Assembly: GCF_046105845.1 (NCBI RefSeq)
Contig: NZ_CP151004.1
From: Escherichia coli
GTDB taxonomy: Bacteria; Pseudomonadota; Gammaproteobacteria; Enterobacterales; Enterobacteriaceae
Direction: 5' to 3' (one strand)
Length of the DNA: 64,000 nt
Position numbers and translations under genes: made by a program. The notes below the pieces were generated by a model. That model worked only from the letters and a program-made list of their open reading frames with translations. It had not been told where the DNA came from and did no database searches. Every line of letters starts with the position of its first letter. Positions within the stretch are counted from its first letter, which is position 1. This document shows positions 8,304 through 48,245 of this stretch, piece after piece.

Positions 8304-9599
<1,296 letters not shown>

Positions 9600-43158: not shown

Positions 43159-44826
43159 TTATTGCAAACGTTCTAATAAACGAGCCAGTTTTTTATTGCC
43201 GCCGGCGACTGGCGACCATTGGTAATGCACAACCGGTTTGCTGGCGCTTTGTAGCTCCAGCGCAAAGCTGCGTAATCCGATGTTAATCACGGCGACGTTT
43301 TCCAGTAATGACGGTGTGTGTTGCTGTGCGGCAGGCGAGAGCGGATGAATTAACGCTGCCGCCAGCAAGGTGGCTTCCGGTAGCGAACTCACGACAGCAA
43401 TCCCCGCATCTTCCAGCGTGGCGATTTGCTGCGAGCGGCATTGCGGGTCACGTTCGGTACCTGTCACCGTGGCAATGGCGTACAGCGGTTGGCTGTCTGA
43501 ACGCGCGGCACAGGCTTTTTGCCAGGCGCTCACCAGCGAGGCGGCAGGATCGGCGGTCGCACCGAAGCCAATCACGACATCAAGCAGCAACACGCGCACT
43601 TGCGGTTTAGCGCCGAGATCGGCAATTAACTGGTTGCGTAAGGTTGGGTCGATCATCGGATGGGGACGCCCGACGGTGTAGAAATCATCGCCAAGGTCAA
43701 TGATCTGGTGACCATCGGCGTCGAGCATCATGCCGTGATGATGGGTATCGTCGGCTTCCACGCCAAGGTGTCCGGCAAGTAATCCCGCCGCTTCAGCAGC
43801 CAGCGTACCGCCGGTATACAAACCGCAAATAAATCCGCTGCTGACAGGTGCTATTGCGTTACGTCGCGCCGTGACGCGTGAAAGCAGGCAAGCCAGGCGT
43901 GCGGCCTCATCCAGCGAGGAGGCAAACCAGACATTTTCGTCGCGGGCCACCGCCGGGGTATAACCTAAAAACAGCGCCACCGTCGGTTTGCCGGTTGCTT
44001 TCATGGCATTAACAATTTTCAGACGCACAGCTTCGGCAGGTGGTTTTGAAACAAATGCCAGCACTTCGCTTTTCTCGTCTGCACTGAGCATTTCCAGCGC
44101 CGTCAGCGCACTGATGCCGCCCACTTCACGGCTGAGGTCGCGCCCGCCAAGGCCAATCGCGTGAGTAATTCCCTCCCCTGCCAGCGCAATCTGCGAACAC
44201 AGCTCCTGAATCCCGGTACCGGAAGCGCCAATGACGCCAATATTGCCTTCCGGCATCACGTTAGCAAAAGCCAGCGGCGTGGCGGCAATCATCGACGTAC
44301 CGCAGTCTGGCCCCATCACCAGCAAGCCTTTTTCCCGCGCGCGGGTTTTAAGTTGGATTTCATCTTCCAGCGTGACGTTATCGGAGAACATCATCACGTT
44401 GAGGTTGCGATCCAGCGCCTGATTCGCCAGCTCCGCCGCATACTCGCCAGCCACTGAAATCAGCGCCAGACTGGCGTCGGGTAATTTCTGACAGGCACTG
44501 TCCCAGCGACGCACCTGCGTCAACGCCTGGCTGCTGCCTGAACCCTGCGCCAGTTGTTTTAGCGCCTCTTCAAGCTGCTGCATAACCGCCTGCGCGATCC
44601 CCGCATCCGCCGCTTCGCTACGAATTGCCACGCAAATATCGTTCGGCGTGGCGTGATTAAAATCGTCATGCCAGAAACCTGTCGTCTCTAATAACGCTTT
44701 ATTGGCAGGCGTACCCATCATTACAGAAACATCATCAACATTTTCTGATTCGCTAAGTTTTCGTGAAATAATCATTAAACTGACCGAATCCTGAAAACAC
44801 CCTTTTTTAATAAAGGCGTGGATCAT
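43159..44826 (-). CDS. fdrA: FdrA (CoA-binding, succinyl-CoA synthetase alpha-like fold), 555 aa
   Basis: ORF 43159..44826; first gene of the operon divergent from allD. Confidence 0.85.
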   Translation of the reverse strand: MIHAFIKKGCFQDSVSLMIISRKLSESENVDDVSVMMGTPANKALLETTGFWHDDFNHATPNDICVAIRSEAADAGIAQAVMQQLEEALKQLAQGSGSSQALTQVRRWDSACQKLPDASLALISVAGEYAAELANQALDRNLNVMMFSDNVTLEDEIQLKTRAREKGLLVMGPDCGTSMIAATPLAFANVMPEGNIGVIGASGTGIQELCSQIALAGEGITHAIGLGGRDLSREVGGISALTALEMLSADEKSEVLAFVSKPPAEAVRLKIVNAMKATGKPTVALFLGYTPAVARDENVWFASSLDEAARLACLLSRVTARRNAIAPVSSGFICGLYTGGTLAAEAAGLLAGHLGVEADDTHHHGMMLDADGHQIIDLGDDFYTVGRPHPMIDPTLRNQLIADLGAKPQVRVLLLDVVIGFGATADPAASLVSAWQKACAARSDSQPLYAIATVTGTERDPQCRSQQIATLEDAGIAVVSSLPEATLLAAALIHPLSPAAQQHTPSLLENVAVINIGLRSFALELQSASKPVVHYQWSPVAGGNKKLARLLERLQ

Positions 44827-45142
44827 AACAACTCCTTAAAAATTGCACCCATGGCAATTGCACGAGCAGTGTTAATGTGGCAATTACGGTATCGATGACA
44901 ACGGGTAAATAAGGTGATGAATATCACACAGGGATTATTAACAAAAGAATTCAAATAACCGCCATGTTATTACGCGTTACTTTTTAATAAGCGTGGTTGT
45001 TTTAAAAACCAGGTTAAAAGCGAGCGGATTATCAAATAAATTCTAACTATATTTTTTTGCCTGTCTGGATCACATAATCCAGATATTTTCCCTGTATGTT
45101 AATTGCAGTCATGCTTCACACCGTCGTTAAAAAGGAAGACAG

Positions 45143-46192
45143 ATGAAAATCAGTCGGGAAACACTCCACCAGCTAATCGAGAATAAACTCTGCCAGGCTG
45201 GGTTAAAACGTGAGCACGCTGCAACCGTGGCTGAAGTATTGGTTTACGCCGATGCCAGAGGGATCCACTCTCATGGCGCGGTGCGTGTTGAATACTACGC
45301 AGAACGCATTTCAAAAGGCGGCACCAACCGTGAACCGGAATTTCGTCTTGAAGAAACCGGGCCGTGTTCGGCAATTTTACATGCCGACAATGCCGCCGGA
45401 CAGGTCGCGGCGAAAATGGGTATGGAACATGCCATCAAAACCGCCCAGCAAAAAGGCGTTGCGGTGGTCGGTATCAGCCGGATGGGTCACAGCGGCGCAA
45501 TCTCTTATTTTGTACAGCAGGCAGCTCGCGCCGGGTTAATTGGCATTTCGATGTGCCAGTCCGATCCAATGGTGGTGCCGTTTGGCGGCGCGGAAATTTA
45601 CTACGGAACTAACCCACTGGCCTTTGCCGCGCCGGGAGAAGGCGACGAGATCCTTACCTTTGATATGGCGACTACCGTACAGGCATGGGGAAAAGTGCTC
45701 GACGCCCGCTCGCGTAATATGTCTATCCCGGATACCTGGGCGGTCGATAAAAACGGAGCACCAACAACCGATCCATTTGCAGTTAACGCCCTGCTCCCTG
45801 CCGCCGGACCGAAAGGGTATGGCCTGATGATGATGATTGACGTCCTCTCAGGCGTCTTACTCGGCTTACCGTTCGGGCGACAGGTTAGTTCGATGTATGA
45901 CGATTTACACGCCGGGCGTAATTTGGGGCAATTACATATCGTTATTAATCCGAACTTTTTCTCCTCCAGCGAACTATTCCGTCAACATCTTAGCCAGACC
46001 ATGCGCGAATTAAATGCCATAACCCCCGCGCCCGGTTTTAACCAGGTTTATTATCCCGGACAGGATCAGGATATTAAACAACGCAAAGCCGCCGTCGAAG
46101 GCATCGAAATTGTTGATGATATTTACCAGTATTTAATTTCCGACGCGCTTTATAACACGTCATACGAAACGAAAAATCCCTTTGCGCAATAA
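45143..46192 (+). CDS. allD: Ureidoglycolate dehydrogenase AllD (349 aa)
   Basis: Malate/L-lactate dehydrogenase-2 family; MKISRETLHQLIENKLCQAGLKREHAATVAEVLVYADARGIHSHGAVRVEYY... Confidence 0.9.
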   Translation: MKISRETLHQLIENKLCQAGLKREHAATVAEVLVYADARGIHSHGAVRVEYYAERISKGGTNREPEFRLEETGPCSAILHADNAAGQVAAKMGMEHAIKTAQQKGVAVVGISRMGHSGAISYFVQQAARAGLIGISMCQSDPMVVPFGGAEIYYGTNPLAFAAPGEGDEILTFDMATTVQAWGKVLDARSRNMSIPDTWAVDKNGAPTTDPFAVNALLPAAGPKGYGLMMMIDVLSGVLLGLPFGRQVSSMYDDLHAGRNLGQLHIVINPNFFSSSELFRQHLSQTMRELNAITPAPGFNQVYYPGQDQDIKQRKAAVEGIEIVDDIYQYLISDALYNTSYETKNPFAQ

Positions 46193-46213
46193 TTATTGAG
46201 ACAGGACTTTCTT

Positions 46214-47449
46214 ATGATTACACATTTCCGTCAAGCCATAGAAGAAACGCTGCCCTGGCTTTCCTCTTTTGGCGCTGACCCAACGGGTGGTATGACCCGT
46301 TTACTTTATTCGCCGGAATGGCTGGAAACTCAGCAGCAATTTAAAAAAAGAATGGCAGCAAGCGGGCTGGAAACACGTTTCGATGAAGTGGGGAATTTAT
46401 ATGGTCGCCTGAGTGGCACCGAATATCCACAGGAAGTGGTTCTGAGCGGTTCGCATATCGATACCGTGGTTAACGGCGGTAACCTCGACGGGCAATTCGG
46501 CGCGCTGGCGGCGTGGCTGGCAATTGACTGGCTGAAAACGCAATACGGCGCGCCGTTACGTACGGTCGAAGTGGTGGCGATGGCAGAAGAAGAAGGCAGC
46601 CGCTTCCCGTATGTCTTCTGGGGCAGTAAAAATATCTTTGGGCTGGCGAATCCTGACGACGTGCGGAATATCTGTGATGCCAAAGGAAATAGTTTTGTCG
46701 ATGCGATGAAGGCTTGCGGATTTACTCTGCCGAACGCCCCACTAACTCCGCGTCAGGATATTAAAGCCTTTGTCGAACTGCATATCGAACAGGGCTGTGT
46801 GCTGGAAAGTAATGGGCAGTCAATTGGCGTGGTGAATGCAATTGTCGGGCAGCGTCGTTATACGGTGACGCTGAACGGCGAATCAAACCATGCAGGCACC
46901 ACGCCGATGGGTTATCGTCGTGATACGGTTTACGCTTTCAGTCGCATTTGCCATCAGTCGATCGAAAAAGCGAAAAAGATGGGCGACCCGCTGGTGCTGA
47001 CCTTTGGCAAGGTGGAGCCGCGTCCGAATACGGTGAATGTGGTGCCGGGTAAAACCACGTTCACCATTGATTGTCGTCATACCGATGCTGCCGTGCTGCG
47101 CGATTTCACCCAACAGTTAGAAAACGACATGCGGGCGATTTGCGATGAAATGGACATTGGTATTGATATCGATTTATGGATGGACGAAGAACCCGTGCCG
47201 ATGAATAAGGAGCTGGTCGCCACCCTGACAGAATTGTGTGAAAGTGAAAAACTGAATTACCGGGTGATGCACAGTGGTGCCGGGCACGACGCGCAAATTT
47301 TCGCGCCTCGCGTGCCGACCTGCATGATTTTCATTCCCAGCATCAACGGGATCAGCCATAACCCGGCGGAACGCACCAATATTACCGACCTTGCCGAAGG
47401 GGTCAAAACGTTGGCACTCATGCTTTATCAACTTGCCTGGCAGAAATAA
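46214..47449 (+). CDS. allC: Allantoate amidohydrolase AllC (411 aa)
   Basis: M20 peptidase family; start at ATG 46214 (MITHFRQAIEETLPWLSSFGADP...). Confidence 0.9.
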   Translation: MITHFRQAIEETLPWLSSFGADPTGGMTRLLYSPEWLETQQQFKKRMAASGLETRFDEVGNLYGRLSGTEYPQEVVLSGSHIDTVVNGGNLDGQFGALAAWLAIDWLKTQYGAPLRTVEVVAMAEEEGSRFPYVFWGSKNIFGLANPDDVRNICDAKGNSFVDAMKACGFTLPNAPLTPRQDIKAFVELHIEQGCVLESNGQSIGVVNAIVGQRRYTVTLNGESNHAGTTPMGYRRDTVYAFSRICHQSIEKAKKMGDPLVLTFGKVEPRPNTVNVVPGKTTFTIDCRHTDAAVLRDFTQQLENDMRAICDEMDIGIDIDLWMDEEPVPMNKELVATLTELCESEKLNYRVMHSGAGHDAQIFAPRVPTCMIFIPSINGISHNPAERTNITDLAEGVKTLALMLYQLAWQK

Positions 47450-47459
47450 GGAGTTATAA

Positions 47460-48245
47460 ATGGGATATTTAAATAACGTCACCGGTTACCGCGATGATTT
47501 ACTGGCTAACCGTGCGATTGTTAAACACGGTAATTTCGCGCTGCTAACCCCGGACGGTCTGGTAAAAAATATTATTCCGGGCTTTGAAAATTGTGACGCG
47601 ACAATCCTCTCCACGCCAAAGCTGGGTGCCTCTTTTGTTGATTATCTGGTCACACTGCATCAAAACGGTGGTAACCAACAGGGCTTCGGTGGTGAAGGAG
47701 TTGAAACGTTCCTGTATGTGATCTCTGGAAATATCACTGCCAAAGCTGAAGGGAAAACATTTACCTTAAGCGAAGGTGGCTATCTTTATTGCCCGCCAGG
47801 CTCCTTAATGACGTTTGTTAACGCCCAGGCCGAAGACAGCCAAATCTTTTTATATAAGCGCCGCTATGTTCCGGTAGAAGGCCATGCACCGTGGCTGGTT
47901 TCTGGCAATGCCAGCGAGCTCGAACGCATTCATTATGAAGGCATGGACGATGTTATTCTGCTGGATTTTCTGCCCAAAGAGTTAGGTTTTGATATGAACA
48001 TGCATATCCTCTCTTTTGCGCCAGGTGCCAGCCACGGTTATATCGAAACTCACGTCCAGGAACACGGTGCCTATATTCTTTCCGGTCAGGGGGTTTATAA
48101 CCTCGACAATAACTGGATCCCGGTGAAAAAAGGCGATTACATCTTTATGGGCGCTTATTCCTTACAGGCCGGTTATGGCGTAGGGCGTGGTGAAGCGTTT
48201 AGTTATATTTACTCGAAAGATTGCAACCGCGACGTAGAGATTTAA
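47460..48245 (+). CDS. allE: (S)-ureidoglycine aminohydrolase AllE/YlbA (cupin), 261 aa
   Basis: ORF 47460..48245; bicupin protein downstream of allC. Confidence 0.88.
   Translation: MGYLNNVTGYRDDLLANRAIVKHGNFALLTPDGLVKNIIPGFENCDATILSTPKLGASFVDYLVTLHQNGGNQQGFGGEGVETFLYVISGNITAKAEGKTFTLSEGGYLYCPPGSLMTFVNAQAEDSQIFLYKRRYVPVEGHAPWLVSGNASELERIHYEGMDDVILLDFLPKELGFDMNMHILSFAPGASHGYIETHVQEHGAYILSGQGVYNLDNNWIPVKKGDYIFMGAYSLQAGYGVGRGEAFSYIYSKDCNRDVEI

Follow-up and report, generated by a model that had tools for sequence, protein, structure and literature searches.

In the divergent promoter region between fdrA (allF) and allD of Escherichia coli, a perfect inverted repeat overlaps a heptamer, GATCACA (45068–45074, plus strand), that is conserved far beyond the genus whereas the repeat itself is not. 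The heptamer combines four bases from the end of the left arm with the first three of the spacer, and it holds the Dam sequence GATC. From the observed conservation, spacing and loss of the right arm, we consider it probable that the functional unit is this one-sided sequence, serving as an activator or RNA polymerase contact that overlaps the −35 region of allD. With similar confidence, our best reading of the symmetry is that it is an Escherichia-specific coincidence of ordinary frequency, laid over an older one-sided promoter element. GATCACA would then be a deeply conserved allD promoter element, apparently undescribed in open-access text. E. coli uses allantoin strictly under anaerobic conditions, and how the allD promoter is controlled is only partly understood: the promoter needs AllS, and ArcA was put forward in 2025. 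A conserved unit at about −36, rather than a palindrome, shows experimenters which bases to mutate.

The window (the whole stretch of 64,000 nucleotides that was analysed) is from E. coli: the 601 bases round the site match 5,351 of 5,426 complete E. coli genomes at 95–99% identity, and the RefSeq annotation of the matching genomes, from which we took the gene names, places allD and fdrA beneath the match. The first gene of the allFGHK operon, fdrA (43159–44826, minus strand; RefSeq annotation and PMC12535856), is separated from allD (45143–46192, plus strand, with its ATG at 45143), which encodes ureidoglycolate dehydrogenase, by an intergenic region of 316 bp (44827–45142, 36% G+C); allC (46196–47449) and allE (47460–48245) follow downstream of allD. 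A preliminary description had reported a palindrome in this region, about 60 bp upstream of allD. We confirmed both its context and its sequence: ctggatcacataatccag lies at 45065–45082, with 6-bp arms (CTGGAT and ATCCAG) round the 6-bp spacer CACATA, and its end is 60 bp from the allD ATG. The sequence is identical in K-12 MG1655 and in E69. It extends to an imperfect inverted repeat with 9-bp arms and one mismatch, TGTCTGGAT/ATCCAGATA (45062–45085), which a scan scored as terminator-like.

Inverted repeats of this kind are common in the window. We counted 279 perfect 6-bp inverted repeats with spacers of 0–12 bp, equivalent to 1.38 per 316 bp, and 68% of shuffled intergenic regions carried at least one. 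The frequency of the palindrome is therefore ordinary. The real intergenic region contains six such matches, although one nested repeat accounts for two of them. Across species, the arms are fully complementary (6/6) only in Escherichia, that is, in the window and in E. whittamii, whereas only 1–4 of the 6 positions pair in 35 other species. At the position of the right arm, Citrobacter has ATCAAT or TTAGAT, Klebsiella TTTAAG and Serratia TTCCCC, and the right-arm columns of the anchored allD upstream alignment carry 0.1–0.5 bit. The preliminary description had taken the palindrome for a candidate operator and had named conservation across Enterobacteriaceae as a check on it. The arms are not kept in orthologous promoters, and the palindromic operator fails on that comparison; what survives of the proposal is that a cis-regulatory element is present here, because the GATCACA that runs from the left arm into the spacer is conserved although the palindrome is not.

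Could the full 18-bp palindrome nevertheless be a genuine operator, confined to Escherichia, for a dimeric regulator such as AllR or another repressor? We judge this very improbable. The dyad is perfect, extends to 8 of 9 bp and is kept in both E. coli and E. whittamii, and 4,850 of 5,305 E. coli genomes are identical over 45050–45105. However, the lack of any change over these 18 bp between the two species is not significant at their divergence, and outside Escherichia the dyad is not conserved and its frequency fits chance. The likeness to operators of the IclR-family regulator AllR is likewise partial. Two AllR-type operators of the form TTGGAA-N5-TTCCAA occur in the same gene cluster, upstream of gcl and in the allA/allS intergenic region (TTGGAAAAATTTTCCAA, 57515–57531; TTGGAATATTTTTCCAA, 58965–58981), and the outer arms of the palindrome share TGGA and TCCA with them. 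By contrast, the palindrome reads CTGGAT-N6-ATCCAG, so that 4 of 6 arm bases agree, the inner arm base differs and the spacer is one base longer. Furthermore, deletion of allR left expression of allF'-lacZ unchanged, and no AllR site was predicted in the region (PMC12535856).

The same repeat might instead act as RNA, either as an intrinsic terminator or as a hairpin in the 5' leader, and we regard this as extremely improbable. Apart from the terminator-like score, the argument for it is the stability of the hairpin in E. coli (−10.9 kcal/mol, z = −7 against shuffles). In E. whittamii the value is −6.5 kcal/mol, and in 16 other species it ranges from −4.4 to 0 kcal/mol, mostly between 0 and −2.9, so that the structure is absent in 16 of the 18 species tested. 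Moreover, fdrA diverges and no gene reads into the repeat on the plus strand, the T-run is TTTT followed by CCC, and the repeat lies upstream of the inferred start of allD transcription. A search of Rfam gave no family match, only a meaningless sub-threshold hit to a eukaryotic family.

We examined the conservation of the heptamer in a scan for AllD that took one genome per species and yielded 80 loci. All seven positions of GATCACA are invariant in 37 allD upstream regions from at least 15 genera, covering Enterobacterales and Photobacterium, although this invariance arises in part by selection, as the set was anchored on exact matches to GATCACA. The columns that flank the heptamer carry 0.1–1.0 bit. 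Outside the anchored set, seven further Proteus species have GATCACG, and the element is absent from the allD upstream regions of Wohlfahrtiimonas and of one Photobacterium. Downstream lies a conserved TAnnnT, which in the window is TATGTT (45095–45100, plus strand) and represents the putative −10 hexamer of allD. It reads TATGTT in E. coli, TATTTT in Klebsiella, TACATT in Serratia, Erwinia, Providencia and Proteus, and TACTAT in Photobacterium. The gap between GATCACA and TAnnnT is 20 bp in every locus that bears the element except that of Serratia marcescens UMH3, in which it is 19 bp. Across 38 AllD-orthologue loci of about 7 kb, GATCACA-N20-TAnnnT occurs once per locus and always directly upstream of allD; K-12 and E. 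coli TW08637 also carry it there. The heptamer itself is found three times in the window, against 7.2 copies expected by chance, and the other two copies (at 8400 and 47717) lie outside the intergenic region.

Genera that retain divergent fdrA and allD genes are Escherichia, Citrobacter, Klebsiella/Raoultella, Superficieibacter, Atlantibacter, Buttiauxella, Serratia, Budvicia, Pragia, Providencia, Erwinia and Pantoea. In Photobacterium, allFGH precede allD on the same strand; Budvicia diplopodorum has allA and an IclR-family gene upstream of allD; and in Proteus mirabilis a homologue of allD (about 70% identity) is located between serS and pflA/pflB, outside the allantoin cluster. All three keep the element. 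The Proteus loci that we examined retain GATCAC(A/G)-N20-TAnnnT, most of them with a second GATC 10 bp downstream. Because GATCACA persists where fdrA is not divergent, we conclude that it belongs to allD and not to the divergent arrangement.

A natural disruption of the element exists in E. coli GCEC19 (NZ_CP137765.1), in which an IS1 interrupts GATCACA just ahead of allD. Typical Enterobacteriaceae allD/fdrA loci were also found on contigs labelled Chryseobacterium sp. 18061 and Sporobacter termitidis (a metagenome-assembled genome, MAG). The first of these is nearly identical to the locus of Citrobacter sp. 18056, and both assemblies are probably mislabelled or contaminated.

All coordinates for the allD promoter rest on the conserved TAnnnT. 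Taking it as the −10 hexamer, we infer a transcription start at about 45107, and GATCACA would then span about −39 to −33; the activating role and the identity of the bound factor are likewise inferred. There is no TTGACA-like −35 hexamer 17 ± 1 bp from the putative −10; ATCACA shares 4 of 6 bases with TTGACA, but its spacer is 20 bp. Given that no usable −35 hexamer is present at the normal 17-bp spacing, we read the allD promoter as activator-dependent. In this model, GATCACA would be the promoter-proximal contact of an activator that touches RNA polymerase, and AllS would bind further upstream, at about 45000–45050 (roughly −110 to −57). As to what binds the heptamer, a CRP-type half-site is a reasonable possibility, although short of probable; a promoter-proximal site of AllS is a more tentative one; and another factor or a Dam-linked control is doubtful.

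The case for CRP begins with the sequence itself, because GATCACA is an extended half-site of the CRP consensus (..AGATCACATTT), and GATCACG, the Proteus variant, is a form of half-site common among real CRP sites. We scored the region with a matrix derived from 39 CRP sites whose Kd is 10 nM or less (Footprint-seq, PMC12871828 Table 1). The proximal half at allD reaches 11–13.5 bits in all but the three Proteus sequences (3.6–5.1 bits). As a full CRP site, however, the E. coli 20-mer scores 1.4 bits and ranks 242nd of 63,981 positions in the window, compared with 10.2–22.4 bits for the training sites; its proximal half contributes +12.2 bits and its distal half is anti-consensus (−10.8 bits). 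The whole 20-mer scores 10–15 bits in Atlantibacter, Rahnella, Providencia, Budvicia diplopodorum, an Erwinia MAG and Serratia DD3. Only 1 of 37 species has the key distal G, so that conservation here does not concern an ordinary CRP dimer site. According to the Footprint-seq preprint, CRP binding at the weakest sites depends chiefly on one half-site, and the allD site is not among the sites of 10 nM or less in its table, from a total of 1,217 sites reported overall (PMC12871828).

The layout of the allD promoter resembles that of class II CRP promoters with one good half-site, of the galP1 type. The galP1 promoter reads TCACA-N21-TATGGT; here, G-A-TCACA-W-W-T stands 20 bp upstream of a TATGNT −10, the −35 hexamer is missing, and the would-be 22-bp site is centred at 45066.5. 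This centre precedes the first base of TAnnnT by 28.5 bp and would lie at about −40.5 or −41.5, depending on where transcription starts. The anti-consensus distal half in E. coli and the over-conservation of the leading 'GA' set it apart from the galP1 type.

Consistent with a class II layout, the partner promoter has a full CRP site. This site, GGTGA-TGAATA-TCACA (44911–44930, centre 44920.5), scores 18.5 bits and ranks first of the 63,981 positions in the window, its GTGA-N6-TCAC core is invariant across genera in the intergenic alignments, and it corresponds to a novel site bound by CRP in vitro (NC_000913.3 546586; estimated Kd 9.8 nM, PMC12871828 Table 1). The putative −10 hexamer of allF, TACCGT (44886–44891, minus strand), lies 21 bp from the CRP half-site, and both this spacing and the TAnnnT hold in cross-genus alignments. 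The site is centred at −41.5 relative to TAnnnT, which gives the allF promoter the appearance of a class II CRP promoter. The similarity suggests the same layout for the allF and allD promoters of the oxamate branch, and catabolite control of both may follow. The comparison also reveals a difference: the 'GA' that precedes TCACA is invariant at the allD element, whereas at the genuine CRP site, 146 bp distant, these two bases vary without restriction, which points to a constraint on the allD element beyond that imposed by CRP.

The alternative centred on AllS holds that GATCACA is its promoter-proximal activation site, with an AllS tetramer reaching the −35 region from an upstream recognition site. 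LysR-type activators typically have a second site that overlaps −35, and the position of GATCACA would fit such an activation site if transcription starts at about 45107. A LysR-type dyad is present upstream at a conserved distance, although it is degenerate in E. coli: the sequence TTTTAA-N8-TTAAAA (45000–45019; PMC12535856 and our alignment) aligns with TTAGAA-ATA-TTCTAA in Erwinia and Pantoea and with GTTAGA-TTAT-TTCTAAC in Wohlfahrtiimonas. This dyad may be the ancestral AllS box. Expression of both allD and allF depends on AllS, according to Rintoul 2002 as cited in PMC12535856, and allF'-lacZ requires AllS and ArcA (Kim & Kim 2025; PMC12535856).

Against this alternative, GATCACA bears no resemblance to the dyad half-site TTCTAA(C), and its conservation exceeds that of the presumed recognition site, which is the reverse of the usual LysR pattern. 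The centre of the dyad, at about −97, is around 60 bp from GATCACA and far for one tetramer. The two features also occur separately: Wohlfahrtiimonas has the dyad without GATCACA, and Proteus has GATCAC(A/G)-N20-TAnnnT upstream of an allD homologue that lies outside any allantoin cluster. Published binding data point the same way. A lysate from cells overproducing AllS shifted the fragment from −203 to −144 relative to the allF ATG (44970–45029), the PRODORIC AllS site is centred at −181 (about 45007), and an ArcA lysate shifted the fragment from −142 to −83 (44909–44968) (PMC12535856). The palindrome, at −239 to −256, falls outside both shifted fragments, as does GATCACA outside the AllS-shifted one, and the published AllS site is about 60 bp further upstream of allD. 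The suggestion in the preliminary description that the palindrome is an operator for AllS does not agree with these positions, and for GATCACA itself we hold a proximal AllS contact to be possible but tentative.

Among further features of the upstream region, an A/T-rich block, GATTATCAAATAAATTCTAAC (45027–45047), is nearly invariant in Enterobacteriaceae, with an invariant TCTAAC. It contains TTCTAAC, the half-site of the LysR-type dyad, and may be a second AllS contact or a site of DNA bending. The published AllS region is poorly conserved among Enterobacteriaceae. A GATTAT...AATTC element at 44933–44952 resembles GATTATCAAATAAATTCTAAC.

Because all seven bases of GATCACA are invariant, two beyond what CRP needs, and because the element persists in Proteus outside the cluster, a different reading can be put forward, although we consider it unlikely: a regulator with no link yet known to allantoin catabolism would recognise GATCACA, or the heptamer would be a switch sensitive to Dam methylation. 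If it were true, part of the unexplained anaerobic or nitrogen control of allD would lie in an element conserved from Vibrionaceae to Enterobacteriaceae. The narrower proposal that methylation of the conserved GATC alters the binding of a regulator at the allD promoter seems improbable to us. It would account for the invariance of the G and A before TCACA (37/37), which vary in the neighbouring CRP site, and for the two GATC sites 10 bp apart in Proteus species; in addition, the taxa that carry the element all belong to groups that have Dam, as is generally known. However, a single GATC within a wholly conserved heptamer needs no methylation to explain it, and the CRP consensus half-site itself includes GATC.

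Several other factors were considered and rejected. A genome-wide map of sigma-54 has no site in the intergenic region, and GG-N10-GC is absent; the FNR motif TTGAT-N4-ATCAA fails at the distal half and at the C of ATCAC; and the ArcA direct repeat TGTTA needs an A where GATCACA has its invariant C. Inspection by eye gave no fit to LexA (CTG-N10-CAG), a DnaA box, IHF, Fur, a SoxS/MarA box, PhoB, CreB or MerR-type spacer dyads. Predicted OxyR (−224) and SoxS (−237) sites abut the palindrome, and deletions of the corresponding genes raised allF'-lacZ only slightly (PMC12535856).

Two observations concern ArcA. The CRP site on the allF side lies inside the −142/−83 fragment, whose shift by a crude lysate Kim & Kim 2025 ascribed to ArcA. 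Near allD, TATGTTAATTGCAGTCATG (45095–45113) includes ATGTTAA, which overlaps the putative −10 hexamer. We take ATGTTAA to be a good match to the ArcA direct-repeat element, and it could bear on the proposed control of allD by ArcA.

Finally, an inverted repeat of the form AATTGC-N7-GCAATT is located at 44841–44859, just upstream of the allF Shine–Dalgarno sequence, and is terminator-like on the minus strand. Conservation of this repeat extends from E. coli as far as Klebsiella and Superficieibacter and shows no covariation; in the 5' region of allF it could act as an operator or form a hairpin in the leader.
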